Assembly (NCBI GenBank): GCA_010093605.1
Contig: MU004191.1
Location: 1,720,816-1,784,815, forward strand
Direction: 5' to 3'
Source of the DNA: Lophium mytilinum
Taxonomy: Eukaryota
DNA length: 64,000 bases
Part shown: in pieces, positions 37,520-64,000 of the stretch
Numbering within the stretch: the first letter of the stretch is position 1
Layout of the letters: every line of letters begins with the position of its first letter
The notes under the pieces: model-generated
Told to the model about the DNA's origin: nothing
Database searches by the model: none
The model's input: only the letters and a program-made list of their open reading frames with translations
Made by a program: the position numbers and the translations under genes

Positions 37520-37898
37520 GCTTTAAGTATGTTGGAGGTTGTGGGTGTGCTGGGTTATGATGGTTAGAGTGGGGTGACGGAGCTCCGATGGAGTGGTTGT
37601 TGAGTGGTTGGAAGACTCCTGAGCAAGCGCCTCCTTATATAACATGCATGACAGGCGAATTCGGTAGTGCGTCTTCAATCACGGTGGACATTCACAAGCA
37701 ATAGATTGGCCTACAATGTCGGATTGTACGACTAGAAGTTGTTTCACCTCGCTCGCGACGAACATTCACAAGACTTTTCGCTCTATTTAAGGAGATCGAG
37801 GTGCCAGAATGTCTCTTCTTTCTCTCAGACCATCTCAACGCGCTCCTTGAGGACCTCTACAACTCAGTATTGCGTTTACTGCACTTGTCCGTACCACC

Positions 37899-39440: not shown

Positions 39441-39504
39441 TCCTTGTTAGTCGCCCGAAGATTCACTCCTTGTTAGTAGCCCTAGGGTTCGTTCCTTGTT
39501 TAGT
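39441..39504 (+). promoter_or_regulatory. Three TCCTTGTT(T)AGT motifs at exact 26-bp spacing upstream of the triple-SRR1 gene
   Basis: Copies start at 39441, 39467 and 39493. Confidence 0.55.
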
Positions 39505-39723
39505 ATATGTATGATCTCTACACTCATGCTTTTACTTTTCAATTTTCCCCCAAAGTTCAACCAAAAATACGACCGGCTTGATCCCAAGTTCAATAAAATC
39601 ACTTACGTCCTCTTCTAGTTCTCAGATAAGACTTTTGCTGCTCTAGAGTTCAAGCACGACGCCCGAGTAGCCTGTCCACCTACAGTGGACACATCCAGAA
39701 AGATTAAGAGGTCCATAAACGCA

Positions 39724-41808: not shown

Positions 41809-42242
41809 CCGCGCTCTCAAAGCGCTATCTTTTTCGGTTTCTTTGCAAAGACCGTATCTAATAGCTGTCTAATGCAATGTAAATCCCTTCAAAAAAACCT
41901 TTATTGTGCTGATTGGTTACAGGCTGCAAAGCTTTGAATCTCCTACTTCAGTTCTTAGGTAGCAAATTCCTGTTCAATTGTGTTTGTCTCAAAAGAAGTG
42001 TTCTAGCCAGCGGCGAGGGTATAGATTGACGAATATGCAAGAAATATAACTTGACGATAGCTCATCGCTTGAATAAGGAGAAGGTGGTCAAGGTTGGCAC
42101 GCCTGACGAGTTGCTCGCTAGGATGGCGAGGAAGAAGAATGCGGGGGTGAGGAAATGGAAGACGACGAAGAGGAGGAGGAGGAAGGAGCGGATAAGGCTT
42201 GGTTTAGGGAGATGTGGGATACTGCTTAGTGAAGATAGACAG

Positions 42243-44126
42243 TTAGAGAGAATTCGCAGCCATTAGAACTAGCATTCCAAACGCATCACCGCTCACCATC
42301 CATGAACTCAGGTCATTCATCTTATCCCCCCCATGTCCCCTCCCAAGCGCCATTAAATCCGCCCACCTTAAATGACCCCTCCCATCTCTTGCCCTCAGCA
42401 TCTCGTCATACTTTTCTATCCATTCACCTTCCGTCGCCGCCTCCCAAAGATTTTTGTGGGCAGGAAGCGGTAGAACGGACAGCCCGACTTTAGATTTAGC
42501 CCGTCCTTCAGGTTTGATGTCGAACAGAAGGTGCAGTATGAAGAGTACCGTTACTTAAGGTGGCAATAAAGTTAGCAAATCTATCAGAATTAGAATGAAG
42601 AAAATGATATGGATTCTTTATAACAACTGTTGCGTAAGACACTTCTTCGGGGGATTCCAAGACACCACTATGGTTGTCTCGGAATACTCCCTGAGTAGTT
42701 TCAAAAACAACAAATTGCTGGGAAAGTTTTCATCTTTATCGGGAGCTTTCGTACCGGTCCTTCGTTTCGACTCCACCAACACCCACTCTTTCCATTCCGG
42801 ACGGCGGCCTTCGATCTCAGCACTGCAGACTAATTTGAACTGTCCAGCTTGGATCTCAATTTCCTAGCAAGAAGAACCGTCAGCTTGTTGACAAGCGGAG
42901 GACATCAAAGTCTCACCGTCATCGCTCTAGCGAGCTCGCTGTCGAATTCAGCGGAGAATGAGTCCTCGTCAAAGATCCTGAGGAGGATATACAACGTGAC
43001 TGCCTGAAGCATGGACAGCACAGTCCACTCATCTCCGTTCACGTATTCGTTTATAAAGCGGTTCTTTTCCATGGTTATAGTGCGCCAGATGAAAGAGCTT
43101 GTTGCAGGTGTCTTGGTGGTGTAGAGTGAGACGATCGATTTGCAAATCTCTAGTGTCGGTAAGGGAGGTGGGGTTGCGCAAGTCGGAGTTTGACACGAGT
43201 TCGGGGGTGGAAGCGACGTGCCGTGGATGAAGGGCGGCAGGTTCTTCGTTGCAAGGGCCGTAGCGTACGATTTGAAGTTCTGCAAAAGGAAGGTACGGCC
43301 GATCTGTGAGCCCGTTGAGAGATATGCGTGAATGAATGGGCTTCTGGGCGAGGTGGGGGACAGATCGTAGTCCATGGGTCGAAGGACTAGGTAGGGGGTA
43401 TGGAACATGCAGTCTGCGGGAGTTGAGAATGTCGCGTCGAGGGTTAACCCTAAGCTTGGTGATGGACTAGAGATGAACCAGTTGATCGGGGATCCATTGA
43501 ATGGATAGCCATTGGACGAAATATTAGCACCCATGTCAGAAACTTCCAAGTCTTCCACAAATCCAGCTTCCGATTCCCAGAGAGCGAGGTCGTTCTGAGG
43601 CGTTAGGTCGGGCACAGGAGCAAGCCAAAGACTAGGAGTATCCATATCTAAGCTGATCTGATCGTCATTGCCGTTGTCCGCATGGGCATTCCAACGAATG
43701 TCGGTTTGATTGCCCGGTTCCGCGATATCAACAAGCAATGTACTATCGGAGCTTGGTTCAGGTTGCTGGGCTGAGGTCGCACTCTTCCTAGTCAGTTCAT
43801 AAACACAAGTAAGGCCCCTATCATCGCATCGACTACAATTTGGGAGTTCCGAGTCGCATTTTGCTTTTGCTTTCCGACAAGCTGCACATGATTTCCTCAA
43901 GACCGGGAGACTGTCCACCAACTTCTTCCTACAGTACAGTACGTGTCGATTCCTCGAGGTTCCTAGCACGACAATTGAGTAAATGGCTAATGGGATTGTG
44001 TTTGAGAACAAAAGGAATCCTACGTTTTGTGAACGCTTTGGAGCAGATCTTGCAGAGGAACGGCCCGGTATCATTGTCGATATGCCGGTAGGAGGATGTT
44101 CCACTAGTCCTAGGCTCTGTATTCAT
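42243..44126 (-). CDS. Zn(II)2Cys6 transcription factor with an N-terminal C2HC finger; 4 exons
   Basis: Spliced CKICSKAFTKRTSRNRHVLYC, then SCAACRKAKAKCDSELPNCSRCDDRGLTCVY. C-terminal LPPFIH, MLQAVTLYILLR, WKEWVLVESKRRT, LPLPAHKNLWEA and DAFGMLVLMAANSL*. Confidence 0.9.
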
Positions 44127-44796
44127 GGACGTCTGCTGCGACCTTCGGATGTAATGGCTGATAGCAAGGCCAGGGCGGAGGAGATCAATCTTCTAAGTTG
44201 CTGCGCTTTCATGTCATCCGGATAATTTGGCTCTTGCCGCTTCGGGTTAGGCTGTTTAGCGCGCTGCAGAACACAACTCCACACCTCAACCTCACTCCGC
44301 CGTCTCTTCTTACAACAAGATCACAAATCTTTCAAGACGACCTCTATCGCCGCTCAGCTTTCTGGCCTCGAGAGATCTGGTAATTGCCCGATTGAACCAT
44401 CTATAATACTAGGGGCTCTGACGTTTACGGAGGGCCGAGCCTTCGTCTCGTCGATGCCTTTACAAGGATATCTCCGATCATTAAATCCGTGCTAGCGTTT
44501 TGTCGATTTTCCGAGCTGTACAATATTTTCCGCTACCACAATTGCCAAGTACCACCACGTTTAATGCAGTTGAATTTTATTGCATCGTTCTCGTTCATGT
44601 CCGGAGATTCTTGTCGCCCTGAAATGCCTTCGCAATTGTATAAGATGGCATGCATTTCCCCTTTCTCCTGGTCCCTTCATCATATTCTTCACCTCATCTT
44701 CATCATATTGAAGATCCCAACACTCCCATCTCTTCCATCTCATCTCAACTTCTTTCAAAGAAAATTTGCAAGTCTCTTCTGAGCATCTCAATCATA

Positions 44797-45954
44797 ATGG
44801 CAGGAGATCTCATTCTCGTAAGAAACCACAGGCTCCACAGGTTCCACAGCCGTTTTCACTAACGACAATTACTTACACCTTCATAGATAACGGGCGTTTC
44901 TGGCTATATCGGATTCAAGACTCTGATCCTAGCTCTTGAAGCAGGGTCCACAGTACGTGCGGTCATCCGCAAGGCTGAACAGGCCACAAAACTCCAGTCT
45001 CACGCTCGAGTCGCACCCCACATGGACAACCTACAATGGGTTGTTATTCAAAATCTCTCAGACACCCACTCCTTCGATCCTTACCTCGCTGGTGTCACGG
45101 GAATTCTTCATATCGCCTCCCCTACTGCCATCGAGGTATTACCCATTTCCGTACCCGTGCCTGATCGTCACGAAGCTAATCCTTTTTAGTCGGACGACTA
45201 CGACCGCGATATTATCGACCCAGCCTTAAAAGTGACCCTCTCCATCCTCAACGCCGCGCACCGCACTCCCTCAATCAAGCGTGTCGTCATCACCTCCTCT
45301 GCCGTAACCATGGTCTCCTTCGCCTGGATGTTTGGTCCCGCGCCTGCGTCCCCAGACCTCACACTATTTACCGCAGCCGACATCAACTCCAACATTGCCG
45401 GTTCCTACGGCACGTCAATGGAAGCATACTTCGCATCCAAGACCCTATCCCGCATTGCTACAAGAAAATTCATGGAGGAGAAGAAGCCAGAATTTGAGTT
45501 CGTTAACTTGCTCCCAACAGTAGTATTCGGGCCAGATGAACTGGCTACAAATGCCGCTGAGTTGGTGACGTCCGGGAACTATCTTGCACTTGGTCCGCTC
45601 CTGGATGTCAATATTCCACAGATGGTGGGGGCTACAGTGCATGTTGATGATGTGGCTAGGGCGCATGTCGATGCGTTGAAGCCGAGTGTGCAAGGGAACA
45701 AAGACTATATTTTGAGTTCTGATGCGCCGGATGGTATTGATTGGAAAGATGCGCAGGATTATGTTAGGAAGTGCTTTCCGGAAGCTGTGGAGAACGGGAC
45801 ATTGAAAATGGGGGCGAGCTCGACGGCGAGGATCTGGAGGTTGGATACTCAGGAGACGGAGAAAGAGTTTGGGTGGAAGTGCGTATCATTCAAGGAGACG
45901 TTGAAAGAGCTTGTGGGGCAATGGTTGAAGTTTGTAGCGGCGGAGAAGAATTAA
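44797..45954 (+). CDS. NAD(P)-dependent extended-SDR reductase (aldehyde reductase II / Gre2-like); 3 exons
   Basis: LILITGVSGYIG, LHIASP, KRVVITSS, catalytic YFASK and VHVDDVARAHV. Confidence 0.92.
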
Positions 45955-46205
45955 GATTGTGGTACGGTTTGATTTAGCTAGATAACTTGAATCTAATCTT
46001 GCAATTATGTGCGGAATTTAGAAAATGTCTTACCAATAGCTGTAATCATCGGACCGCTCATTATGCTTACACCGCGTGTCTCGGGACGCCGTATGGGATC
46101 TTGAAAAAGAATAAACAGCATACAGAATCTGGAGAATCCCACTACTAATCGTATCAAATAACCCAAAAATCTGGAGAAAGAGTCTCAAGCGATCGTGAAC
46201 CTGAA

Positions 46206-47777
46206 TCACCTTGTTTTACGTTTAGTCTTTTGCTCATCTTTGGAATTTGGCTGGTTTCTGGGCTTGTGGTGACGCTTGGGAACATCTGCATGCTTTGGTC
46301 GATCCTGCGGCGCGGTGCCATTCTGCTGCTTAGGTGTCTTCGCGCCTCTAGGCTTTCTCGTTTTCTGGTCAGGCTTTGTTTTCTTCTTCTCGGGTCTCCC
46401 TTCCCTCTGCTCCACTTTTCTGTCCTGCTGCTTGCCTTGTCTCCCCTTTTGCTTAGGTCTGCCCACCCTCTGCCCGATATTCCTTTCCTTCTGCTCGGGG
46501 TTCGTTTTTTTTCGCGATTCTGCTTTATTTTTTGACTCTCGGTCTTTTTTCGTAGCTTTATCGTGCGAAAAATTCCGCGAGTGTTCCGTTTTGGAGAAGT
46601 TAGCCTTCCTCGTCAGCTTAGATTTCTTCCCCTTTGGAGATTGAACTCCATTCGTTCCCAAAACATCTTCAGCCCCGACTTCAACCTGCAAATCAGGCCG
46701 CGTGACTACTTTCTTAGATGAAGTCATCTTTGAATTCCCTGTCTTGAGTAATAAACTGTCGTTGCCAATCGTAGGGCTTCCTGCCTCAGCACTCGGTCGC
46801 GACTCAGACCGTCTACGTTCCGCCTTCGTGGATATGGTTCCATCTACCTTTGGCGACATTCCTTCCCTTGGATCTTCAAATACAATTACCTGTGCCTGTT
46901 CGAGTGAGCCGTCCACCCCTTGCTCTTGCTGAAACTCAGCGACCCAACTAAGCTCTGACTTCATCTCGTTCAGCGCATGCCAGAGGAACTCGCGGCCGTA
47001 GTATTCGATCTCCTCTTGCTGAAACACCCCGCACGCGTCTATGATCTCAAAGGTTTCTAAGAGGTCATCGTGGTATATCTGCGCAAACCCTAAGAAGCGG
47101 TCTCGATCGAAATTGTAACAAAAGGTCTTAACTCATTCCATGTTCTCAGCGGCCAGGAACCTGATCACCTCGACAAGGAAACTGCCATCCTTAGTGCTGA
47201 TATCGTGCTTATCAAAGAGATGCTTAGGCTGGCGGCCCGGGTAGACATAGTGACAGGCCTCGGGGTGCTTTTGTTTGTAGCGCATCGCGAAGTCCTTGCT
47301 GGTGCTGGATCCAGATATCTCGAAACGGGCGTTAGATAGTTCAGTCGATTTACTTTCCCGCGCCCTTGCGATCCTCTCTGAGATATGGAACAGAGAGAAC
47401 ATAGCTGGGTAATTTGTCATTGTTTGAGCTTCCCATTTTGGACTTATTCCAAGGCTCAAATTTCTCATCCATTCAGTAATATAGTCTATCGCCATACCAC
47501 CCATCGTGGCACATCGCGATGAATAATTAAGGGGTTTAGGTAGTCGCCGTTTGATCGGTCTCCAATCGAAATTATGAGGATCGTGATATCTATACCGAGA
47601 TGGATCTACACGCCGACGAGGCTCATCCTGAGCTAATGCTTCTAATTTCACCGATATGAAAGGCTGCGGTATATGGTCCCAGCGCGCGAGAACCATCCCG
47701 ATGCCTTCGGATATGCATTTTCGGAGTTCTTTGTCATCTAAATATGTGCTAGAGGTAAGAGTTGCTTCGTTGATCAT
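46206..47777 (-). pseudogene. Orphan ORF with Lys-rich C-terminus interrupted by one in-frame TGA
   Basis: ORFs 47777-47133 and 47027-46206 are in the same frame. The 35 codons between them are open (ENME*VKTFCYNFDRDRFLGFAQIYHDDLLETFEIIDACGVFQQEE). Confidence 0.55.
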
Positions 47778-48370
47778 TTTTTGTATTAGTATGTGTTAGT
47801 AGAATACCGTGGTGTATGGTGCTAGTAAGAAATAAGAAAGGTCGGGATGGAGGCATCTTTCCGCTTTCTTTCTTTGTCGTGTTCTTCGAGCTTGTTGTTC
47901 TAGGTTAACGTCATCATGAATGCACAATGCTTTTGTTTTACCGCGCTTCACACAATTCTTTCGGAGTCTTACTCGCAAGTTTGAATAGAACACTCCCCCA
48001 AAGCCCACAGCGAAAGCAGTACGGGCAAAGGCGATAAAGCTCTGTGAGGTGGTGCGCTTGGCCTGGAGAGCGTGGCCATGATTCGCGACCCAAGTGTGGT
48101 TAGCTTGGCTCTAGCACAAAGAAGTAGGAAACTCCTGAAATCACCAGCAATTATGAAGATGCCTTCTTGAATTGATTTTCAATTGTTTTGTCTAGTGTTT
48201 TCCGCTTTCATATAATCGCTAGTAGTACAGAAATCATACGGAAACAGGATATCCAAAGAAGCATCCAGTGTTTTCCTTTTCTACACGTCAAACCGCTCAT
48301 CGCCCTGTAAACCGATCAATATTCGGCGCCCGGAATGTAAAAAACTGTCCACACAGTGTAAGTCAAAGAC

Positions 48371-50317
48371 CTAAGGCGCCTCACATTCTGCCAAAGTAAA
48401 ATGCTTAAAGCAAGGGAGCTGCGGCTCTTTCCATACGCCATCATAGAACTCCCCCTTTCCATCAAATGCCACGGGGCTCAAAGCACCGAGGCTGAGCTTG
48501 ATAAGATCTGCTGAATCACATTTCCCAAGCTCAGGTCCCACTGAGATGGTTGTGTCGGAATCTGTTTCAGCAGCTTGGCTGCTCGATTCGTCGTCGCTTT
48601 CCGTGTCGCTGTCGTCCGAGTCGTCGTCAAAAAGGTCACGATGCTTCGTGTCCAAAAGAATTGACAGTCGTTCCTCAACGGCCTCCGCACCTTCGCCACC
48701 GTCCTCCTCGTTGCCAAGGTACCAGGTCATATCGCTTGCGGATTGGCGGGGGAAAGCAGACTGTAGAACTTTAGTGGTGAAATCCTCCAAAACACCGTTT
48801 CCAAATATCGCCGTGTCCAGGGCAGTGTAGATGGGGCTCTTCTTGGTGTATTTGCAATCTCCTTGGCCACCCATGGCGTCTGACAAGCAGTCTGAGTAGT
48901 GATTGCGGTAGAGTTCCAACATCTCGACGGCCAATCCTGAGCGGAACGGGTATAAATATTGAGGCTGCCAATCTTCGCGGAGCCACAAGGGAACCGAAGC
49001 AAATCCGACACATCGAGGAACAGTCTTAACGAGGTCCCAGTCAATAATCGCCGTTACTTTGTAAGTTTCCGGGTCGCAGAGAATGTTTTGGAGACCGAGG
49101 TCCGGGTGCTGTAGAACGAAAGTCTCGGTTTCGTCCGTAGGTGACTGAAGAGACTGCCGGAAAGGATAGCAGTCGAGAGCCGCCTGAGCTATCCTTAACA
49201 CCCCCACATCTTGCACGCTAGAATGGTCCTCGCCCTCCCAGATCTTGGTTAGTGCCGAGAAATACTCTCGTGATGTCGATGCCGCAGGTATATTTCGAGT
49301 GTGTCGTGCAAAAACTGGGTCTCCTAGATTATTCTGGGAGTCGTTGCACCACGCACGCACTGGACCAATGAATGGGGCCTCCAAGTCGTCGTTTTCAAAG
49401 TCGAGCATGCCCGCTTTGTCGAACACAAGATCTTGTAGCCCGGCCATTGCTTCTGCCAGCGACTTTAGTAGATCATGCCGAATCTGGATCGTATTCACTT
49501 CAACATCCCCCTCCGGGTGCCATACGTCGGTCGCTGGCACGCCTTCCATGGCCTCCATGACAATATAGGGAGCCCCAATCTCGTTCTCAAGGACTGTCGA
49601 GTATCGATAGACATCAGGCACCGGGAATTTCCCATTGGTCTTCATCCGGATGTATCGCATAGTCAGAGCCTCCGTGCGAAGATTGCACGCGTCCGTCTTT
49701 GACCATCGTGCCATATGGCCAGTAGCAGGGACCTTGATAACGATCTTGGAGCCATTGGCAGCCTTTAGGATGTAGGCAGTGTGATACGCCCCTTGCTTCT
49801 TGCAGTCAAGCTCGACACCAAGCCCTCCAAGTTCTCCATTGGGATCAAGAACATTGAGGGCAAGGCTCTTGAGCGCCTCGTAAGAGATGTTGCTAGTAGG
49901 CCCCCAATACTTAAAGTCGAAATGTCCTCGGTTCTGAAAGTGTTCCCGCGCAGATTGCATTGGATCGATGGCATTTGGTGCCGTGTCTGATACCCGTGCT
50001 AGCGATGGTGCTGCGAGAATATGATCTTGGGATTCAACTGGATCAGGTTCAGGATGCCTATCCACTTCATTGGTTTGTGGCGCCATCCAGTCGCGGGGTG
50101 CAGGTGGTTTCTTCCGTAATTTGCCCTTTCCATCGGAGCAAACAAGGAAGTCAGGGATAGTGCAATCGGCTGTCTTCTGCACAGTCTTCTTCATACCGTC
50201 CCTGAGTTTGTTTTTGACGTTGTGCGCGATGTCCTTGATCTTGTGGGTGAATTCGTGTCCTTGGATCTTGACTTTGCCCTTGAAGCTCCGGAGCTTGCTG
50301 CAGGTCTTAGGAGCCAT
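48371..50317 (-). CDS. APH/choline-kinase-like phosphotransferase (kinase 3), intronless
   Basis: KKQGAYHTAY, IKVPA, RTEALTMRYI, FPVPDVY, YIVMEAMEG, ETFVLQHPDLGLQNIL and AIIDWD. Lys-rich N-terminus and DDDSDDSD acidic tail. Confidence 0.88.
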   Translation of the reverse strand: MAPKTCSKLRSFKGKVKIQGHEFTHKIKDIAHNVKNKLRDGMKKTVQKTADCTIPDFLVCSDGKGKLRKKPPAPRDWMAPQTNEVDRHPEPDPVESQDHILAAPSLARVSDTAPNAIDPMQSAREHFQNRGHFDFKYWGPTSNISYEALKSLALNVLDPNGELGGLGVELDCKKQGAYHTAYILKAANGSKIVIKVPATGHMARWSKTDACNLRTEALTMRYIRMKTNGKFPVPDVYRYSTVLENEIGAPYIVMEAMEGVPATDVWHPEGDVEVNTIQIRHDLLKSLAEAMAGLQDLVFDKAGMLDFENDDLEAPFIGPVRAWCNDSQNNLGDPVFARHTRNIPAASTSREYFSALTKIWEGEDHSSVQDVGVLRIAQAALDCYPFRQSLQSPTDETETFVLQHPDLGLQNILCDPETYKVTAIIDWDLVKTVPRCVGFASVPLWLREDWQPQYLYPFRSGLAVEMLELYRNHYSDCLSDAMGGQGDCKYTKKSPIYTALDTAIFGNGVLEDFTTKVLQSAFPRQSASDMTWYLGNEEDGGEGAEAVEERLSILLDTKHRDLFDDDSDDSDTESDDESSSQAAETDSDTTISVGPELGKCDSADLIKLSLGALSPVAFDGKGEFYDGVWKEPQLPCFKHFTLAECEAP

Positions 50318-50854
50318 TCGAGAAGATTATGGCGTGTGATCTGAGAAAGAAAAGTTTGTTCGATGGAGTGCTGCTGTGTGGTGGAAGGTGTGATGTGGTG
50401 GTGTTTGTGGTTGAGTTTGTGTTGGAGTGAAAAAGTAGGAGGGTAGATAGCTACTTAAGTATGGACTTGAATAAGAGCGCCCTACGAGAAGCGCGTGCGT
50501 TTACAATGAGTACTGGTGAATGCCACGCAACTGACCCGCAATTATATAGCTCTGTAGCATTGTTCGTATACAAATCCCAACTGGCACACCATTCACGGCT
50601 TCTATTATGCACAATACCGCTAAGGACAGTGGCTCGACTCCTGTCCAGGTCCACTCGCCTGTGCAGATTCACTACTACGATGAGTACAAGCTCCCCATAA
50701 ATATCTCGTGCCGTTGCAATGGCATCGAGTCTCATCAAAGTTGTTCCATCACCACTACCCACCACCGCCTTCGAAAGTGTCTTGGAGCCACCCGTACACA
50801 ACATCTTCAGCCATCCTAAACACTCAACATCCTTAGACTTCCTACCCAGTCACC

Positions 50855-51007
50855 ATGAATAGCTTAAACAGCGTTCACCAGTCCAAGGATCAATTCAGGA
50901 AGGGAAAAGAAGAAATTGGAAAGGAGATCCGCTTCGAAGCTAGTGATACCTGGGCATCCACCCGCAATATTCGAACGGGGGCCCAGTGTGCAAAATTACA
51001 TCCCTAA
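50855..51007 (+). pseudogene. 5' remnant of a probable paralogue of the 37899-38468 Cys/His protein, cut at the edge of the RIP block
   Basis: CACCATG start after a C/A-rich leader. It encodes MNSLNSVHQS...WASTRNIRTGAQCAKLHP*. STRNIRTGAQCAKLH aligns with NTRNSITGKEAGKTH, and the sequence turns AT-rich right after this point. Confidence 0.55.
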
Positions 51008-51539
51008 CTCTATAATATAGGTAAAAAGTCCATATAATTAGCATTTACTAAAAATAATATTACGTAATAGTACCCTATGCATTATAAAACACCTAAAAGG
51101 AAAGCGTATAGAGGCGTACCTTTCTAATACCCTAGTAAGTAAATCCCTTACTAGAAGGATTATCTTAGTAAAGACTATTTAGCTAAGCTATCTTACTAAA
51201 AGAGGGGCTAACTTTTTATCCCTTTTAAGTAAATAGTTAGCTATAAAAATAATAGCAATCCTTTATTACTTATATACGCTAATAAAGTAAATTATAATTT
51301 AGAAGGGAAATCTACTAGTATATATATAAGACTAATTACTTTATAGTACTAATAGACTTAGTTAAATAAAGGGTACCTAGCTAAATATTTTATAATAAAA
51401 ATAGGCGTAGATCTACTTAATATAGCGCGCATATTAGTAAATATTCTAGAAAAAGAGTATAGTATTAGAGTCCTATAGGCGTATATATTAAGCTATAAAG
51501 TATTAAGCTAGAAAAGAAATTATATAATTTTATAGTAAG

Positions 51540-54251
51540 AGCTAATCTATACCCTTACTAGATGCGCATCTATAGCTCTAGACTTTACTTCTTTACCTCT
51601 TTATATTATTCTGTGCTGTAAACTTTACTAACTATATTTACTAGAAATGTATCTAGTGCATTATTACTACTAGCAGCTACCTTAAGTAGGTTATCTATAG
51701 ATTACAATATATAAGTAATATAGTTAAACTTTTACTCCTACTAATAGATTCTTTTAATGCTCTATAAATAGGTACTATATAAATATTAGAGTTCTAGTAT
51801 TATAATTCTTTATACTTAATATAGCGTATATTTAACGCCTAAAACGCTAGTAGTACTAATTAGTATTATTAGTATAAAGTTTTCTATATACTAGATATTA
51901 CTGTGCTAATCCTATATAATACTACTATTATCTTAGTAGCGCCGCTCTTTCTAGAATCTAGAGACTATAGTATTCCTCTCTACTTTATTAAGCTATGCCC
52001 TAAATAGTTATACCTTATAGTATAGGTATACTACCTTTATCTACTTATAGAGTAATAGCGCGGCAGCTAAAATATAGGTAAGAATTACAAGCTATTAGAG
52101 ATAATTCTTAAGCTTATTTAGAATACCTATAGAGATTATAGTACCTCTTTAAGTTTATTACTCCTTAGTAGCCGCTGTATCTTCTTAGTCTATCTCTTTA
52201 ATAATATCTAGTATCTTCTGCGTCTTAGGATTTAATGCTGCAATTTCTATAGTAAATTAATAGAATAGTAAGTCTAAGTTAAGTATATACTATCTTCTCT
52301 TCTTAATAGTAGCTATAGTTATTCTATACTTAAAATAACCCTCTTATAGTAGTTAACTAAGAACTAGAAAACTAAATACCGGGCGCTATTAGTAAATTAG
52401 GCTTAGAAGCTTACTCTATAGAAAATTTAGCGGATCTTCTATACTACCTTAATACTACTATTACCTAATACTCTCTAGCTATATTACACGCAGCTTTATA
52501 GTAATATTATTAATACTAGCCTAGGCTTCTACTTAATACTCTAGGTTAAGAAAGCACTCTTAACTCTACTCTTTAAGCTAAGGAAGTAGAACTAGGGGTT
52601 TCCCTCTATTATTACTATTTATCTAAAAGCTTCTAGTATCTATTATCTAGTAAATTATTATTAAACTAAGCGCTTTAGCCTAATGCTCTACCTAGACTCT
52701 AATCTAGTTTTTAAAGTCTTAACGTGCTTAAATTAATTATAAACTATCTTTATAGTTAGTAATAATTTTATTAAAGTTTACCTAGATATTATAAAGTATA
52801 TAACTTAAGCACGCAGTTTATAATCTTTATATATCTTTAGGAACCTCTCCCTTTTACTCTACTTTAAAATCCTATTACTGCTCTAGAAACTTAATATATT
52901 CTATTATATCCTCTAGGCCTTTTCTCTATAGTATTTCTAATAGTGCCTAAAGAGCAGGCTATATCTTATAATTAATGTAACTAGCTACTAAGACGCGTTA
53001 GAAAATATATAATATTAGCAGGCTCTCTTTATAAGCTTTATTTATGCTAATAATTCTAAACTATATATAAGTTTCTAGTATATATAGTTCTAGATAGTAT
53101 AGCTAGTCTAGCATATAGCTCTTAAATAATAGCGGTGTTATTATAATAATATTACATAATTGCCCTAGCCTTAGACTATATTCTCTATAATATAGAAATA
53201 CTAACTATATTCTAATTTAGGAGTTAAATATAGAAAGAGTATAAAGCTAAGTTTAATATAGCTTAATATTATTGCTAAGACTACTTGCATTACCGGCGTA
53301 ATAGCTAATATAAAGATTTATACTACTATAGCCTTTCTATTCTATATTAAAGATATTACTAAACTCTTTTATCTAGTTATTTTTTAAAGATAGAGGGATA
53401 ATAATTAGCGCGTTTTCTAATATTAGCTAGAGCTTAGCTAAGACGCTACAGAGCTTATATATGCACTAGAGCGGAGATCTTATACTACTACTTAGGTATA
53501 ATTAATTTACACTAGCACCTTTATATAGGTATTTTCTATTATTTATCTAGTTATTAGATCTATAACTTTCTAGAAGTAATTAGAACTTTTTAACTTTAGT
53601 ACTATATTTCTCTAGAATAGTATTTACCTAGTATACTAATAGTATTTCTATAGTCTTTCTAAGGCCTTATTTATCTCTATTAAACCCGCCCTGCATTATA
53701 CTATTTTAGCCGAGCATCTATATAACTATATAAATCTAGTAGATATAGAGCTATTATTTTATACCCGGTACTAATATTCTATTACTTTTTATATTCTATA
53801 GAACCTTAAATAATATATAGGCCTTAGTCTATAGCTCTAACTCTATATACTTAGTTATTTAAGCCCGCGCTATACTTTTCTAGATTACTTCTTTTACCTT
53901 AAATACCTTATTAAGTTGCAGATCTATAGCAGCGAGGTTAAATCTATAGTAATTAGAAATTTTATATTATACTTCTCTAATTAAAGAAATTATATATATA
54001 GTTTACTTTATAAAACTATAAAGATATATAGTACTATAGATTTTAAAGCCTTATAACTATATTAGAAACTATAGAAAGTAAGAAGAATCTTCTAGATAGT
54101 AGATAGCTACTATAGAGCATATTTTCCTCTAGCAAAGTTATAAGAATAGCGTAGGTAATACTATTAGAATTAGACTAGAGTTTATATATATTTCTAGGGG
54201 TTTCTTTTTAGACGCTAAGTTTACCTTATATAAATCTTATAAATTATCTAT
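51540..54251 (-). pseudogene. RIP-destroyed SNF2-family helicase/ATPase (about 900 codons, no introns seen)
   Basis: Reversing C>T/G>A gives motifs in the right order: VPGMK..LYIYQ..V.WML, GGFNGDEQGLGKT (53690-53652), ALIIIP.SLKNNWIKEF, MDEAH (53045-53031), WALSGTPW (52949-52926), GKPLV.LP, LIGTTGVLGVGYTL (51863-51822) and QSIKRIHRQGQ (51764-51732). Ends are approximate. Confidence 0.85.
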
Positions 54252-54574
54252 ATTAGAATTAGTATTAATATTATATAGTTAAAGTAGCTAATTAACTAGA
54301 AAGTATATTAAGAAAGTTAATAGCCTAGTTAGATTCGGGCAGTTTTATTAATAGCCCCGTGCGCTAATCGCATGCTAAGCTAAACTAGTAGAAGGGGATT
54401 AATAATAAATACTACTAGTATAGAAGGGGCGTTATTCTTCTTCTATATAAGAGCTACTATTATCTCTATAGCTAGGTATAGTACATGCCTTATATATAGA
54501 ATATAGAAGATATAATAAGATAGAAATTACTCTATATACTACCTATCTCTCTTCTTTCTTACTAAGATAATAAT

Positions 54575-55348
54575 ATAGAATTAAGTACTAGCTCTACTAG
54601 AAATACTAACGCTAATTCTTATTATAACACCTATAAAACTAAAGGGGTTCTTATTTATATTAAGGTATAGTAATATATTTAAAAGGATACTCCTTACTTA
54701 ACTAGTATACCCGCCGCTAATAGATTCTATAAGCCTCTAAAATTACTTAAATATTACTACATTCTTATCTTTCTAGGCGAGAATAACCTAAATAAGTATA
54801 GCTAATTTAGAGGGCTAGAACTAGCGTGCTATTTTATCCCTAATAATATAATAGAACCTCTAGAAATAATAGGCTCTAAATAAAATTAGCTAATATTCTT
54901 CTAATAGAAGTCTATAATAGCCGGCTTATATATAGGCACGTTCTTATTTACTATAAATAGAATCTTTTAACTAGAATTTAGGGCTGCTTATTATAAGATA
55001 TTCTCTTATAGTTATATACTTAATTATTTTAAAAAGGTTATTAATAGAATAGATATATATATTAAGAACCTTAACTTTATATTAAAATCCTTCTAGACTA
55101 TAGACTATAGAACTATACATTAATAACTTGCGCAAGCATTTACTAGAATTAGAATATTACTAGACTACAGCTATAAAATAGACTAAGAAGAACGTTAGAG
55201 GGCTTATAACGCAGACAAGAGGAAATATTACGCAGGATTAGAACGTATAGTAGAAAGAAAACGTAACGCTAAAAGTAGAAAAATGTATAAAAATAGGATA
55301 ATAGTACCTAAAGTAAAGTACTTACTATTAAAATTTAGAAGTAAGTAA
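54575..55348 (+). pseudogene. RIP-mutated orphan ORF fossil (about 258 codons), divergent from the SNF2 relic
   Basis: One frame in which all stops are TAA/TAG (explicable as former CAA/CAG/TGG), with protein-like text such as EERxRAYNADKRKYYAGLERIVERKR. No family recognised. Confidence 0.45.
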
Positions 55349-55886
55349 AGCTTATTATAAAAGATTAATTAAGAGGATAGCGCAGGCCTAGTTATATCTA
55401 TATACTAGTTAAGGTAGCTAGTAAAGAGGGGGCTAGGGCCTAACTACTTAAATTTTAATACTTACACCTTAATAGACTTTAAAATTTAGTTAGCTAGTCT
55501 ATAGCTTACTTAGAATTAAAAATTATATTTTTAGTATATTATCTTTCTATTGCAGTTATTATTCTATTAGAAGAAGTATGCTATTTTATAAACTTTACTA
55601 TTATATAATAGTAATTAGGGTAATTTAAGGTAGTATTATAGCTATATTAGCCTTATACCTTTCTCTTCTTCTTAGCTTAGTATTCTTATAACCTTAAATA
55701 GAGCCTATTTTAACCTAAACTATATTTATACTCTTATATAATAGAATACTAAGCTTTTTTTAGAGTTTAGAAGAGAAGGGCCTATATATAAATTACTATT
55801 ATAATAATTCTTTACCGGCCCTAATACTAAATTTTAATATCCTTATAGTACTAACTAAGTAACTAGCCTTATTTATTAACTACTTA

Positions 55887-56655
55887 ATATCTCTATTATA
55901 TACTAAGACTGCCCTCCGGCCTACTACGCCTCTTTATGCACCCGCCCGCCGCGGCCGCTACACCCGCTATAAACCTATTTAGGCTAGCCGGGAGGAGAGG
56001 CCTACTATATAGGGCTATATTAGAAAATTAGTAGTAGCCTAAATATATAGAAGAGCGTAGAAGAAGTAATAGCTAAAAGAAGTTTATTATATACTAGATA
56101 GAAATTAAGCCTTAGTATATACTAATTACTATTAAATTATCCTCTCTTATAATAAGTAGTTAAAAATAGCATTATATAACCTATATACTAATAGCCGCCT
56201 GCACCACTAGTAGACTTATATAGCCTTATTTAACTCTAGTCTATATTACTAGTATTACTAGTAGGCCTATATAACCTTATTTAATAGCCTTATAAGTAAC
56301 CTCTATTATTAAACCCTAGTCTAAGAAGCTACAGCTTATGCGCAGCTTTCTAATAAGCTTATAATACCGCCTATTATATATACCTTATTTAAACATTCTT
56401 CTATATTAACTTACTATTAATTTAAATATTCTTAATAAGCTACCTATTATAGCCGTGCTATAGGCTATACCTAGCTACTATTCTTAAGGCTATACGCCGT
56501 GCTATAAGCTACACCTATAAGCTTGCCGCTTAATATTCTTAATTTAAGTATATTCTCTACCTTAATTCTTATAATAATAACACGGCCCTATAGTATATAG
56601 TAGATAATAGAAAATTCTTAGATTTAGTATTATAAGTCTATATAGAATTACTAGC
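55887..56655 (+). pseudogene. RIP-mutated orphan ORF fossil, basic N-terminus and Gln/His-rich body
   Basis: Reads KTALRPTTPL.APARRGR.TR...ASREERPT..G.IRK.VVA....RA.KK. Stops are only TAA/TAG. Confidence 0.4.
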
Positions 56656-57113
56656 AATTATAATAGCCTAATTAGAAGGGGCTTTCTTTAGAGGAGGGGG
56701 GGGAAAGAGAGGGCGTTATAGCTATATTATGCACCGTTCTACTTTTATATACTACAGTTATATAATAGGTACTATATACTCTTATAATAATAAGACGCTA
56801 GGCTTAGCACCGCTAGTTAATCCCCTAAACTAAAGAGCGTTTAAGGTAGATTCTAGCGGACTCCTAGTAGAGTTATTAGACTAGCTTAGAGGCGGGTAGC
56901 CTATAATTTAAGTTAATAGCGTTAATTTAATATGCTAAAAATTTATACTTAAGATAGCGTACTAAGAGAGGCGTCTTACTATTATAAAAGTATATAGTAT
57001 TTACTATAACTCTATAATATTCTCTTACCTAGACCTATATATTATAATTTCTAATTCCTGCATTTATTATCTAAGTATATTAAGCTTATAATTATCTATA
57101 TTAATAGATAGTA

Positions 57114-58253
57114 CTATTTTAGACCTTCTTAAAGCTAATAGAATGTTCTATAAAGAACTTCTACTAAGTTATACTAATTATTTATAATAATAAGCGCTAG
57201 CTTATACTCTTTCTATATCTAATTTTTATTAGAGTCTATAGAGGCTTACTAATAGTAATTCTACTTTACTTATTACTACTCTTTATTTAGCTAGCGTATT
57301 CTAGCGTATATATAACTTACTATAGCCCTTTCTACTTTCCCCTTAACTGCCTTTACCCTTAGGCGCATTTCTAGAAAGTATACCTATAGAGTATTAGACT
57401 TAGAACTATACGCTAGCATAAAATTCTTATTATACTTAAAGCTATTAACTAATACTAGATAGAGTCTAGCCTTTTATGCAGAAGCTTAGTAATATTAAAT
57501 AATAGATCTCTAGCATTTATTACGCTTATATTAGTAGAGTTAAATAACTATTTTCCCCCCTAGACCTAGGTAGTTTTTCTAAGAAGTAAAGGCCTTTTTA
57601 ACGCATACTGCAGTAAGAATCTTAGGGTGCTATAGGTAAAGTATAAGCTTAAAGCCCGGTTTATAGGAACTACCTTAGCTTAGTAACCTAATATATTTTT
57701 CCTAGTTCTTAAATAGAATATAGAGAGTATAGTTTAATATTAAACCTCTTAGCCTAATAATATATAGAAAAGATAATTTATTTATAACTACTAAGATTAT
57801 AATATTAATAGCTCTATTAGTGCCGCCGATAATAAGAATCCTCCCTTCTTTAATCTTAACGCTATTATAGAACTTAGCAGTTTATAATATTATTAATATC
57901 TTAAGGTAGCACTATAATATAGTAGATAAGTATAATAGCTTATAGGGTAAGTATATAATCTCTTAAAAGTAATTATCTTTTCTAATTCTTATTTATCTAA
58001 GTATTTATATTAGAAGGTAAAATATCTAGGTATTTCTAGAATCTTATTTTAGAATATCTAGCGCCTAACTCGGGCTTAACTTTATTATAAGGCCTTTTGT
58101 CGACTAATTAGCTCTTAGATAACTTAAGACTTCTTAAGTAGCCCCGGACTCTCTATTAACTGCCCTAAGCTTACTTTAATTGCTCTAGCTTTAATAAATT
58201 TATTATAATTCTAGTTTTTATCTACTAGGGCGGAAAGCCCTACGCGCCAGCAT
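57114..58253 (-). pseudogene. RIP-mutated orphan ORF fossil (about 380 codons)
   Basis: Surviving ATG at 58253 (MLARRAFRPSR...). The frame continues through EGRILIIGGT, YKPGFKL, HPKILTAVCV and EMRLRVKAVKGKVERA with only RIP-type stops. Confidence 0.45.
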
Positions 58254-61200
58254 ATTTTAGTAGCAGTTAAAAATAAGTTTTACTATTTATACTATGTAAA
58301 AGTATAGTATAGTTCTACTAGTATCTTTCTTAGATAGTAAAGTTAGCTATCTATATATAACGCCTCTTCTTAGTTTAAATATCTCTAACTAATAAAGAGT
58401 TATTATATAAAAGATTCTTATAGATGCTACCTAGAATAGCTACTATCTTACCTTATTTATACTAAGTTACCCGGGAAGATTATATCTTTTCTAACTCTAT
58501 AATTTTATATTCTTATCTATAATTTTTAAACCTTTTCTATTAATACCTCTCTATAGAGGCTATTAGGGTAGAAAATAAATAATCTACTATAACCGCTTTC
58601 TACATAAGAATAGCTTATAGATACTTGCATTAATATGCTGTAAACTTATACCTAAGTAGTAAGCATTCTATAGACACGCTTTAATGCAGTAGTGCCTGTG
58701 TTATTCTAATTATCTAAGGTTCTCTCTTAGAGCATATACTATATAAATACTATTATTAGCTAAGCTAAATTAATTAATTATTAGCAAGCGGCCTAATATA
58801 TAGTCTAATTAACCTAATAATACACTACTATAGTAATAATTACTCTTAATAATCTACATAATATAGTTAATATAGCACTTAACTCTATAGTACGCCTACT
58901 TCTTAAGTTTCTACCGGCCTTAGTACTTGCTTTAGAAACTACTATCTTTATCTAGATTATAATTATCTAGATATATATTATAATTACCTGCATATTTTCT
59001 ACCTTACTTAAAGGGCTAGTCTAGAAGAAGATAAAAAAGCCTAAGGCCGGACGCAGAACTATAGTATAAGATAGAATTAGAGAAATATCTTACTAGTAGT
59101 CTATATAGAAAGAGCGCTAAGAGAAAGACTAGTAATAATAATAGGTATTATTTAGTTTATATTTTCTATATATTATAATAGATTATCTAGATTATAGTTA
59201 TCCTATTAAAGTTTATAAGTCTTATTTTTAATAATAAGTAGTAGCTAAATAGAGTTTCTTCTAAGCCTCTAGTCTTAAATACTACTGTAATAAACCTAAG
59301 AAGTTAAATAGAGCGGTAATAACCCCTACTAGACTAAGTACTCCTCTATTTTAACTCCCTATATAGATTTATATTTATTCTCTTATAATAGTATTCTCTT
59401 AATTAACTTAAAAGGCTAACTAGCCCTCTTTCTATAACTATAACTCCTACTATACTTACAACCCCTTTTATCTACTTTCCTAATATAACTATCTTACTCT
59501 ACCTATCTTACTATCTCTATTAAAGCCCTTAAAGTTGCTATAGCCCTTAACTTTACTAGACTTATAATCTACGGCCTCTATAGTCTTACTATTCTTTCCT
59601 ACTATAAGTAATATTATTAGATTAGGGTGGAGCCGGCTAGCGTTAATATTTTATAGTAGAAGGAACTTAATACTTATAGTATATATAGAATTAGAACCTT
59701 TATACTAGAGGCTATATAAAGCCTAAGCTAAGGGTAAGAAAGAGGTTATAGTAGTATAAGGCTAAGATAGGGGGACACCTATATTTATTTATTAGTTAAA
59801 GCAGCAATTAGAATATAAAAGTTAGGCCTTAGAACTAATTAACTAAATTAAATAGTTAATTAAATTAATTAAAGTCTTAGTAATTCTATTATTATATTTA
59901 GATATTAGGAAATAGTTTAACCTAATTTAAAGAGGTCTAATTAATTAAAAATTAAATAGGTTAAACCGTTAGATTATATAATAATATTCTTCTAGTATAT
60001 TAAGGTCTTAGTGCAGGCTTAATACTAAAGCTACCTAAGCTATATGCTTTTCTAGTTATATGCACTTATATTATATAACTAGCTTATTATATATCTATCT
60101 AATATCTATAGTATCTTAGATACTAGCACTACTATAATACTACCTTAATATAATTTAATACTACTAATATTAAAACAGGTATTAAAGAGAATATTAATAA
60201 ATACTTATAGCATCTAATTTAATATATATTTTAAGTATATTAATCTACTCTTAAATACTACCCTTCTATATATACTTAAATTAGGTTTCTAACTCTTTAT
60301 ATAGCTCCTATCTAGTTTTAATGCCACTATTAATATTTAGCTAGATTTTAGTATAATAGGCTGGCGGCATATATCTATTAATAATAAATAATAGGCTATG
60401 CTCCGGGAGCTTCCTATTCCTAAAATAAAGTCTATTATTCTTTAGTATCTTAAGCTCTTTATATCTAAAGTATATAATATAGAGTTATCTATTATAATAT
60501 AGCAGGTCTATATTATTATTACAAGCCTATCTATGCATTAGAAATAAGAAAGCTTTATTATTACTTACTTAAACGTCTTTAAGATCTAGCAGTATTAGAA
60601 TATAAACTAAGATTGCAACTACCTTTACTAAGCTATAATACTTTCTATAAGTATTCTAGCCTATTATATTAATAGATATAGGCAAGCTTACTTTTTCTAT
60701 TATATATTTCTAAATAATAGTATTTAATAGTACGTAATTTATGCCTATACTATACTTTATTACTAGTAAAGAAGCTTAATAGGGCTGTAAGAGTTATAAG
60801 TTATAAAAATTATAGTTTTTATATCTTAACTATTTCTTCTACGTAAGTTAGGGGGAATAAAGTATTAGAACTAAAACTATCCTAATTTTAAAGTATTTAG
60901 TTTTAATAATACCCTAAAAAGGGAAAAGATAGCCTTATAACTATAAGATATAAATATTACTATATTATTTAGAGAAACTACTATATACTATATCTAATAG
61001 TATATACGCTTTATATAGTAAGTATTCCTTAATAGATATCTACCTTAAATTTAATTGCGGTACTCTTATCTCTTAAATAGCGCTTTAAATAGAAGGTTTA
61101 GGTTACTTCTTAGCTCTAGAATTTTATATAGATTATGTAAGCTGTCTATAGAATCTAATAAGTTATTTAATTTAAACTTAGCGTAATACTTATAGACCCC

Positions 61201-62092
61201 TATAGGGTAGAGTAATACAACGTGTTATTTTAATATTTTAAGGGACTATAAAGCTTTAATCTAGAACTTATTTAAGTAGAAGTTATTACTATCTTTATAG
61301 TAGAGATATTTCTATTATATATATTAATATAAGTTGCGCGCTAGTTAGCAGCACCGTTTATATTTTAAACTAGTAGGCTAATATAATTAATTTATTAATA
61401 AGTAATTATTATATAGCTATATAGGTATTATAAGCATCTACTCTAACTAGTCTTTAGTAGCGTCTTAGGTTGTTTTATTATTATTAAAGGTAGGGGGAAA
61501 GAATAGAGAGCTAAAGGTATTACTATAGGCTTATAGTAGGGGCTCTATACTAAATATCTCTTAAGGCTTACTATCTATAGTATAGGTCTTCTTAATAGTA
61601 TACCTTAGTAGAGCTTATATAATAGGGCCCTTCTGCTAGAAGAAGAGTAGGGTAGCGCTAGATCCGCTGCTATAAGGTTTTAGCGGGCGTAGGCTTCTAA
61701 TCTATCTAGCCTACAGCCTGTTATATATTAGACTAAAGCTCTTAAGTTATAAAGCTTACTAATAAGTTATAAGTAGACTATTATAAGGAATTAAAATATT
61801 ATATAGCCTAGAGTTTAATAGCATGTAAAAGTTTATTAATTTAGAGTTTCCCCTATCTAGAGTATTAGGTTTTACAGCGTAGCTCTTATTAGTAATATAT
61901 AAAATAGTATTCTCTTTTACTTACTATAGATTAGTTGCCCTATATATAGAGGCTGCGCTTATAAATAGACTATTATTTTTATATAGATATAAGCCTTCTA
62001 TAAATACTAAATTACTAAGCTTATAAGCCTAGTAATTATCTATCTATACTATATATATAGCTTAGCTCTATATAAAACTTATAATTAAAAAT

Positions 62093-63043
62093 AATGCGGT
62101 TATATTATTTATAAGGAGTTTATTAGAGTATACTAGAGGTAATCTATATCTTATCTATAATAGTAAGCTATAAGAGGGCGTCTAGGGTAATTTTATAAAC
62201 TTATATTATAGGCGCTTACATTAGGGGTAAACTAGAGTTATTAATGCTATAGAAATTTAATATAAGAATATATTAAGAGATAGAAGTTAATATACTATAC
62301 TAAGCATTTACTAAAGTTTAACATAAATATTTAGGTACGCCGCATTTACCTAGCGCAAGCAGGAGTAAATACGCGTTTTCTCTTTTAAAATAGATACTAT
62401 AGGGCCTGCATTAGGCTTAATATTCTCTACCCCCGAGCAAGAATAATTACCCACTACTAAGAAGTAGGTAGAGGATCTTAATAGGGGCGAACTGCCTAAC
62501 CTCTAGAGTACTATATTCTTTAACTAGTTTTAGACGCTACTCTTAGTACTTTTAATAATTCTATACCTAGGTAAACCCGTTAATCTATAGCCTATAATAT
62601 TAGGCTTTTAGTTACTAACTAACCCCTAATTTAACTTAATTATACTAAGCTAATACGCTAGAACGTATATACTTAAATTAGGGTGCTAAGAGTAGCGTCT
62701 AAATTATATTAAAGAATACGTATTTTATATAAAAACTCCATTATATAATAAGATTTAATAGATTTTATAACTAGTACTATATTACGTAATATAATCTTTA
62801 TATAAAATATAGTAGTATAACCTTAGTATAATAAATAGATTATTTTAGAAATAAATTTATAGTATAGAAGATTTATTAAGATTTAATCTAACTAAGCCTC
62901 TAAAAAAGCTTTAAAGAGACTCTAAGTAGGTAATTTATAAGCTAATTAGGGGTAAATACCCCCTCCTATTTAAGGATGCCATTTAAAATCCGCCTAAATA
63001 TAGGGGTTCTAGAGTTAAAAGAAGAAGTTTTCTATATATTTAA
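62093..63043 (+). pseudogene. RIP-mutated orphan ORF fossil (about 317 codons)
   Basis: One frame containing IFRYAAFT.RKQE.IRVFSF, FSTPEQE.LPTTKK.VEDL.RGELP and KLIRGKYPL.F.DAI. Only RIP-type stops; no family recognised. Confidence 0.4.
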
Positions 63044-64000
63044 TATAAAAAATCTAGCTACTTTCTAATAGTTATAGTATATAAATAATTCCTTATTTCT
63101 TATAATATTATCTATCGGCCTCTAGAAATTATCTACTAATAAGAATTAGTAGAGTATATTATAAGTAAATCTAGTTATACTTATATAAATCTAGACTAGA
63201 GAATTAGCCCCTTAAATCTATACTAATTCTTAGTAGTATATAGTTCTTGCCCGGTAGATAATATTATAAAAAAATTCTAATTAAGATTTTATTTATTATA
63301 ACGCAAATTTATTATAAAGCGGTTTATTATAGTAAGGTTATACTATACTTTTAAGGTTAAGTATAGCTAAATTAGATCTACACGCGGGAAGGTAGGTAGT
63401 AGCGGGTAGCAGAAGAGTAGAAGTATATATTTAACCTTCTATACTTCTCCGCCCGGCCTACTTCTACTCTTCTCTAGTCTTGCAAAGTTAGTTATTTTAA
63501 GAGGTTAAAAGCTCTAATATAAGAATACTATAATATAGAAGTAAGTAATAGAAAATATATAAAGTATAAAATCTACTCTATAGCCTACCTATAAATACTT
63601 TTAAGATTTCTTATAGCTAAGTTCTATACTTTAATCTTTAAGCTAAACTCTAACTACTAAGTAGAGTTAGTTCTAACCTTTAAGCTAACCTTTAGCCTTT
63701 ACTTAGTTTCTAATACTTCTAGCTAATATATTTCCCCTCTTAGTAATTAGAGCTTAGCTTAGGTTTCTAGATACGCTTCTTCTACCTAGCGGCCTTTATG
63801 CAAGTATATCCCTAGTATAAGAAAGGGTTAGAACTATTTATAATTTAAAGTTCTAGTTATTATAAATATACGCTAGGTAGACTATAGAAAGAGGCGGCTT
63901 CTAATATTTTTATTATAATAAGTAAAGTTTTAGTGCTCGCGCGGTCTATAAATTATAAGTATTAGTTACTAGAATATTTATTAATATTATAAGAGGCTTA

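Follow-up and report, generated by a model that had tools for sequence, protein, structure and literature searches.

A SNF2-family ATPase relic in a RIP-mutated block with inverted ends: a possible large selfish element of undescribed kind in Lophium mytilinum

The SNF2 relic and the block around it

The window analysed here, a stretch of 64,000 nucleotides from contig C11 of the Lophium mytilinum genome, ends in a long tract of GC-poor, RIP-mutated DNA that begins near position 51,020 and continues past the window end. Its features are given below in window positions, unless a contig is named; the SNF2 motifs were all read in the frame 54251-51540.

48371..50317, minus strand: APH phosphotransferase gene of the host, to the left of the block; its same-strand paralogue right of the far terminal inverted repeat (TIR) is 41% identical
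C11:1771835-1808239 (51020..64000 in the window), no strand: RIP block of 36.4 kb, GC 0.27, composite RIP index about 1.5
51020..51243, no strand: left TIR, ~225 bp; its inverted partner lies outside the window, 36.4 kb off, at C11:1808007-1808239
51540..54251, minus strand: RIP-destroyed relic of a SNF2-family ATPase gene, pointing toward the left TIR; homology-supported core about 53830-51610
53690-53652, minus strand: SNF2 motif I
53454..53537, minus strand: remnant of a His/Cys insert between motifs I and Ia; H, C, C and C invariant in alignments of 40 and of 32 rows
53408-53361, minus strand: SNF2 motif Ia
53051-53025, minus strand: SNF2 motif II
52946-52926, minus strand: SNF2 motif III
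51857-51789, minus strand: SNF2 motif V
51770-51729, minus strand: SNF2 motif VI
56749..57020, no strand: palindromic MITE-like repeat, with copies of 72-85% identity on C5, C6, C7, C9, C10, C12, C13 and C16
57086..58037, minus strand: relic of orphan gene B, ~310 codons, common to the C11, C13, C9 and C21 blocks; no convincing Pfam family
63974..64000, minus strand: 3' tip of the relic of a kinesin motor-domain gene, whose motor match falls immediately beyond the window, at C11:1785600-1784860
C11:1793360-1795498, strand not given: triple PD-(D/E)XK-fold gene, outside the window and inside the 36.4-kb block, whose part past the window contains more orphan modules as well

The original prediction placed a hidden SNF2-family helicase here, with motifs I, Ia, II, III, V and VI in order on the minus strand, and both points were borne out. 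The motifs run from 53690 down to 51729, and a profile built from 40 intact database homologues, with no copy from the L. mytilinum genome among them, matches the window frame with E=2.7e-34 (profile positions 81-743, window ~53830-51610). The frame comprises 904 codons; homology support starts near 54040, and the gene start at 54251 is putative. It carries 94 stops, each TAA or TAG, yet stop counts cannot single it out, because all six frames of the stretch hold 86-128 stops apiece, with zero TGA. All six frames of this stretch lack a Pfam match (0 of 6), so that the proof of the window copy's identity is indirect; PHROGs gave no match either. The less mutated paralogue on C21, 42% identical to the window copy, does match SNF2-rel_dom (E=1.4e-4, below the curated cut-off). 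In the alignment to this paralogue, 57 of 71 window stops stand opposite R, Q, W or a stop, against a background of 110 in 684 aligned positions, and transitions in the window copy number 433 toward T/A versus 117 in reverse. These comparisons of sequence confirm that the minus-strand frame 54251-51540 is a SNF2-family ATPase destroyed by RIP.

The restored Walker A motif fared less uniformly. Most of it is present in the natural C21 copy; the acidic residue before Q was read from intact homologues only, 28 of 40 having E there and 5 of 40 having D. The claim that this Walker A is a variant had to be abandoned: among the 40 intact homologues, 19 carry M and 17 carry Q at that position of motif I, so the window motif is normal for the clade. 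GKT and DExH are conserved.

The block is a RIP-mutated repeat, with TpA excess, CpA/TpG loss and directional C>T/G>A changes. Its composite RIP index is 1.2-1.7 from about 51,020 to the window end, versus -0.6 to -0.7 in the flanks, where GC is 0.49-0.50. The edges of RIP coincide with the outer ends of both TIRs: in 100-bp bins, GC at the left TIR end falls from 0.47 to 0.30, and at the right one it climbs from 0.30 back to 0.42. CpA is depleted within window 51020-64000 and so is CpG (CpG/GpC 0.15-0.5 versus about 0.9), and many window stops face arginine in C21; RIP thus hit CpG here as well. The TIRs themselves begin with (A)GGTAAAAAG, match at 89% identity across 235 columns, their 224 aligned columns differing by 12 transitions and 2 transversions, and occur genome-wide in these two copies and no others. 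A paralogue is detectable today for 36% of the block; the remaining 64% has neither paralogue nor assignment. RIP needs a duplicate, and because the part lacking a paralogue is mutated as heavily as the rest (RIP index 1.51 within shared modules vs 1.52 outside), the whole unit between the TIRs must once have been present twice.

Same-strand APH paralogues stand on both sides of the block, which therefore interrupts an APH gene array, the arrangement that insertion into such an array would leave. This array, split by the RIP block, counts at least five paralogues (window 33945-50317 and C11:1809484-1813416, 26-51% identity), and a gene with three SRR1 repeats and a Zn2Cys6 gene lie inside it. 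No clean target-site duplication was seen at the TIR ends, the only match there being of 3 bp and requiring one RIP change. The insertion flank was found in two public runs, both from the likely source sample, and they revealed no empty site; a contig of that sample, hence not an independent one, covers window 47,000-60,000 unbroken and with its depth even throughout, so that an assembly join or a collapsed repeat is less likely. The MITE-like repeat at 56749-57020 is probably a later insertion, outside the block core, and further palindromic MITE-like repeats are found at 62514-62718 and 63096-63273.

Homologues and history of the SNF2 gene

The genome holds four further SNF2 copies, on C13 (56% identity to the window copy), C9 (53%), C21 (42%) and, broken, on C5 (51%, at 25.6-27.3 kb). 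Separate from this last fragment, a subtelomeric RIP block of C5 shows a weak minus-strand match to the C-terminal lobe of the SNF2 profile at about 7100-7440 (E 9e-5), probably from another helicase lineage. In sequence databases, a word-based homologue search with the C21 relic found no match, and with the family alignment it recovered only a single member of the family, together with 31 other Rad5/16-like proteins. When the C21 relic was scanned by full phmmer, it returned 160 representatives at E<=0.001, the top one 33% identical (E=1.5e-89). Of the 30 homologue clusters looked up, seven carry names, from Chaenotheca, Sclerophora, Penicillium, Aspergillus, Oculimacula, Emmonsiellopsis and Setomelanomma.

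All 24 intact homologues scanned have the SNF2 domain and 19 have Helicase_C; RING (E<=0.01) was found in 0/24 and HIRAN is absent from all 24. The canonical Rad5/Rad16/Ris1 subfamilies have a RING finger inserted in the ATPase, which is also its place in the RING-bearing relatives among our word-search matches. Judged by its domains, the clade would thus lie outside these subfamilies. A 54-row tree unites the four relics with 28 intact homologues in a single clade (SH-aLRT 100), separate from 22 intact SNF2s of the L. mytilinum genome, whose subfamily names are our own assignments, based in part on motifs and Pfam domains. On long branches, the clade falls within the Rad5/16-like group (SH-aLRT 100, and 99 in a tree with viral rows).

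The original prediction stood to lose its ground if the closest homologues proved to be conserved single-copy core genes. What we found is a clade of its own, in which 25 of the 30 homologue clusters looked up are singletons and the biggest has 3 members; no intact member was found in the L. mytilinum genome, where the best match of an intact homologue is the C21 relic. A distant subclade may nevertheless consist of ordinary chromosomal genes.

Against solved structures the SNF2 profile matched Rad5 best (6l8n, E 1e-45), with ISW1 at 5e-41; a single-sequence PDB search with the relic found no match. The predicted structure of the nearest intact homologue (pLDDT 78.4) has the Snf2 fold, and its top 50 matches are all Snf2 structures (E<=1e-14). 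The clade's invariant His-Cys-Cys-Cys insert is a probable zinc site with putative binding.

The SNF2 copies share 59-70% DNA identity and are separated by many transversions, a kind of change that RIP does not make. In six of six pairs of relics, codon position 3 has an excess of transversions and position 2 the fewest (p<1e-7). This codon pattern shows that the copies diverged under purifying selection, while they still worked as genes and before RIP struck.

A gene set shared by four blocks

The blocks of C11, C13, C9 and C21 have up to nine gene-sized modules in common, in differing order and orientation. Four genes (SNF2, orphan B, the nuclease-like gene and a kinesin) are present in each of the four multi-gene blocks, and this recurrence suggests a core gene set rather than random cargo. 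When three parts of the block were searched genome-wide as DNA, gene-sized matches lay mainly in the same blocks, and Pfam assigned no family to the modules neighbouring SNF2 beyond the C21 kinesin match. SNF2 had been proposed as the terminal gene of a repeated element and as the mark of the element family. The second proposal is supported by its presence in four multi-gene blocks plus the C5 fragment. As for the first, there is indeed a repeated multi-gene unit, but a conserved terminal position was rejected: the gene lies beside a block edge in C11 and, oppositely oriented, in C13, and is internal in C9 and C21.

TIRs were seen in one of the four blocks, none being found at the edges of the C9, C13 and C5 blocks examined (the C13 left edge excepted). 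C13 does contain an inverted pair of 71% identity (C13:761475-761702 and 792627-792861), whose arms are 31 kb apart: one coincides with the right edge of the RIP block, its partner sits in unmutated DNA. The region C21:346000-422000 is only lightly touched by RIP (GC about 0.45) and, with its readable relics of the shared gene set, is the best place to read the element family; hAT copies are present there too, and reading by eye shows a Tc1/mariner-like motif near 417.5-418.3 kb.

The nuclease-like gene, of ~680-700 codons, encodes three domains in a single chain and belongs to no Pfam family; its profile matches all four blocks with E 1e-57 or better. We found 22 intact homologues of patchy distribution, the named ones in Dothideomycetes, with two copies in several named fungi. 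Its model (pLDDT 83.6) shows tandem PD-(D/E)XK-type domains, best matched by RecU (Z 7.5), I-Ssp6803I (Z 7.0) and Hjc (Z 6.9), with rmsd of 3.4-3.6 over 118-136 residues and Z-scores under 8, a range that the tool grades as possibly a common arrangement. Foldseek against PDB gave no match at E<=0.001, and Atlas feature matches for the nuclease were all under 0.9. These middling scores gain backing from acidic/K motifs, which are conserved in two of the three domains, the first two. As modelled, the gene shows a three-fold PD-(D/E)XK architecture and encodes a predicted nuclease, like RecU, Hjc and I-Ssp6803I in fold and unlike them in having three domains per chain and 8-13% identity.

The C21 kinesin has a Pfam match of E 7e-8. 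For C11, C13 and C9, a profile of six host kinesins with simulated RIP scored 52-55 bits, versus 13-17 for reversed decoys, and in a third setting 27-38 bits versus 9 for decoys. The C11 relic was detected only with entropy weighting, in three settings that all exceeded decoys and were tuned after its motifs had been read by eye; on it, a plain profile was blank, as was an over-fitted simulated-RIP profile. Since the C21 kinesin has no direct match to the other three, the relics may not form one lineage. The C9 block has a second kinesin relic (C9:1199000-1199700, 28-34 bits in two of three settings), and three tandem repeats of ~117 bp, probably coiled-coil repeats, lie beside the 5' part of the C11 relic (C11:1785918-1786295).

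Co-occurrence of these genes in intact genomes, the check proposed with the original prediction, failed to appear in a thin sample: around three intact fungal SNF2 homologues the neighbouring ORFs match no other module, and two of the three sit among ordinary-looking genes. No species is represented both among the seven named SNF2 homologues and among the named nuclease homologues, so that linkage of the two genes in intact genomes stays hypothetical. Metagenome loci with SNF2 homologues were examined in five of 12 cases, two bacterial. On one metagenome contig (L054:3565-6329), an intact SNF2 belonging to the relic clade has an intact DUF6589 gene (E 2e-66) as its immediate downstream neighbour; this SNF2 is one of the closer intact homologues.

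One could suspect that the blocks are static accessory clusters of host genes, segmentally duplicated and RIP-mutated, whose inverted ends are just two copies of a small repeat. This would agree with the two intact SNF2 homologues standing among ordinary genes and with X3X3R8, read as an endogenous cluster in the portion of text available from Hane and Oliver 2010 (PMC3017866). We nonetheless consider it improbable, given an inverted repeat whose only two genome copies match both RIP edges, an APH array split by the block, a gene order that varies among the four blocks, and SNF2 copies so rich in transversions at 59-70% DNA identity.

A viral origin was weighed too. Endogenous giant viruses and Polintons carry capsid, DNA polymerase B, packaging ATPase and integrase. 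A linear unit with TIRs and shuffled gene order would suit relics of an endogenous linear DNA virus or a Polinton-like element of fungi, and the Atlas clusters nearest an intact SNF2 homologue are largely Nucleocytoviricota. Against a viral structure library, the nuclease model was likewise best matched by giant-virus proteins, with E 2.8e-6 to 9.5e-5 over about 400-430 columns, at a TM of 0.26-0.31 by query. However, the nuclease family has no relative in IMG/VR, where SNF2 has a single weak match, and no capsid, polymerase, packaging ATPase or integrase was matched among 150 stop-free segments of C21, a search of low sensitivity. When 19 viral SNF2s, chosen from 77 extracted proteins and including 12 of giant-virus assemblies, were added to the tree (quick tree search, long branches), they formed their own clade (SH-aLRT 99) with the relic family outside. 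As the clade is not nested among these 19, a viral origin of SNF2 was rejected, and we regard the blocks as very improbable viral relics.

Mobility and comparison with known elements

No transposase or recombinase was identified in the C11 block, 64% of which is without assignment. The Plavaka transposase (PF18759) has 16 RIP-mutated matches elsewhere in the genome and zero in the four blocks; Plavaka membership was rejected for this lack, and for a TIR start of (A)GGTAAAAAG versus TGT..ACA or CATCA..TGATG. RIP-aware profiles for DUF6589 (presumably transposon-linked), the C21 hAT and the remainder of C21 gave nothing above decoys in the C11 block beyond known modules, the DDE transposase test covering Plavaka, DUF6589, one hAT and the content of C21:322-421 kb. 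A genome search for DUF6589 was blank and little informative, and the 3.7 kb at the right end of the block, read by eye, has no transposase motif. The DUF3435 captain found no match in the genome, with an equally blank control, and none of the Starship accessory genes DUF3723, FRE, PLP and NLR was among the 150 stop-free segments from C21, where RIP was light.

DDE transposons typically end in TIRs, and by this general mark the C11 block resembles one. A possible reading, which we hold only tentatively, is a giant transposon of known superfamily, either a TIR-bounded DDE type or a decayed Starship, in which the transposase or captain is lost or unrecognisable, with SNF2, nuclease and kinesin as co-travelling cargo swapped among elements. 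The unassigned 64% leaves room for such an enzyme, one of the closer intact SNF2 homologues adjoins DUF6589, and captain-less degraded Starships are described in the available text of PMC9156397. Cargo would also fit the lack of other modules near the three intact fungal SNF2 homologues and of TIRs at the other edges examined. Yet the Plavaka matches all lie outside the blocks, the termini are unlike those of PlavakaA/B, and the RIP-aware DUF6589, hAT and rest-of-C21 profiles did not exceed decoys in the C11 block. Four genes recurring in all four blocks, moreover, look more core-like than random cargo.

We favour, at a probability of roughly 0.52, that the SNF2 relic is a dead core gene of large selfish elements that carry several genes and form an old family in filamentous ascomycetes. 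That the C11 unit was mobile seems quite likely, and it would have moved as a whole; whether SNF2 belongs to the element's own machinery and is not cargo is close to an even bet. The C11 member would be a 36.4-kb unit with ~225-bp TIRs, inserted into the APH gene array, at some time present twice in one nucleus and then killed by RIP end to end. Rad5/Rad54-type enzymes translocate on double-stranded DNA and clear chromatin or remodel recombination intermediates. By analogy, the SNF2 motor may have translocated on double-stranded DNA to clear chromatin or to remodel a recombination intermediate, while the tandem nuclease would cut at or near the inverted ends, or resolve junctions. The kinesin might help the element's transmission at division, and possibly biases its inheritance, as kinesin-based meiotic drivers do in maize. 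A bolder version, which we think doubtful at present, sees in the blocks the fossils of an undescribed class of giant fungal element working without DDE transposase or tyrosine recombinase, with long TIRs and a fixed toolkit of triple nuclease, RING-less SNF2 and kinesin.

Large mobile elements shape fungal accessory genomes, and those known are recognised by the transposase or captain that they encode. Searches of that kind would overlook a family whose marks are instead a SNF2 motor, a tandem nuclease and a kinesin. The three profiles built here are direct handles on intact members, and they set a SNF2 clade and a widespread nuclease-fold family, neither of which has a name, in a testable context. 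Together with the three other dead blocks that share its genes, the C11 unit may represent a large selfish element of a kind yet to be described, and giant fungal mobile DNA with this gene set is possibly a new class. Should it be only a known transposon with cargo, the recurrent gene set would still be documented, one not found described in the literature searched. That literature, from which most subscription papers and supplements fell outside the scope, describes no unit that is bounded by TIRs and combines SNF2 with a tandem nuclease and a kinesin.

Parts of the picture are known already, as far as the available text of the sources goes: RIP-killed Rad5/SNF2 repeats (PMC3017866), giant cargo elements (PMC9156397) and SNF2-like proteins encoded in Fusarium graminearum insertions (PMC11152077), these last compared by description only. 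In the accessible sections of PMC3781322, Snf2 enzymes are ATP-driven DNA translocases and the Rad5/16-like group comprises Rad5/Rad16, Ris1, Lodestar/TTF2 and SHPRH/Irc20. The relic clade shares motifs I-VI and both RecA lobes with this group, and differs from it in lacking RING and HIRAN (24/24), in its His/Cys insert, in its long branch and in its mostly singleton clusters.

Among giant elements, Plavaka of the CMCT clade are TIR-bounded multi-gene DNA elements with a 2-3 bp target duplication, according to the text available from Kojima 2025 (PMC12730594). They resemble the C11 block in being TIR-bounded and multi-gene, and RIP-killed Plavaka copies lie elsewhere in the L. mytilinum genome. 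Starships, in the part of Gluck-Thaler et al. 2022 (PMC9156397) at hand, span tens of kb with many genes in Pezizomycotina, and degraded captain-less copies exist. Size class, gene number, Pezizomycotina hosts and degraded copies are common to them and the C11 block; as described there, they differ from the block in its long symmetric TIRs, and the words 'kinesin' and 'helicase' are absent from that main text. Starships have a DUF3435 tyrosine recombinase at the 5' end, whereas the block has no detected captain, in a test made weak by its blank control.

X3X3R8 of Parastagonospora (Stagonospora) nodorum is, in the available text of PMC3017866, a RIP-mutated repeat with Rad5/SNF2-like helicase genes. 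The comparison is by description only: X3X3R8 differs in having a Rad6-like enzyme, tandem helicases and nine copies, with no mention of TIRs, kinesin or nuclease in that text, and it shares with the L. mytilinum block the character of an ascomycete multi-gene repeat, mutated by RIP, that joins Rad5/SNF2-like helicases to unknown ORFs.
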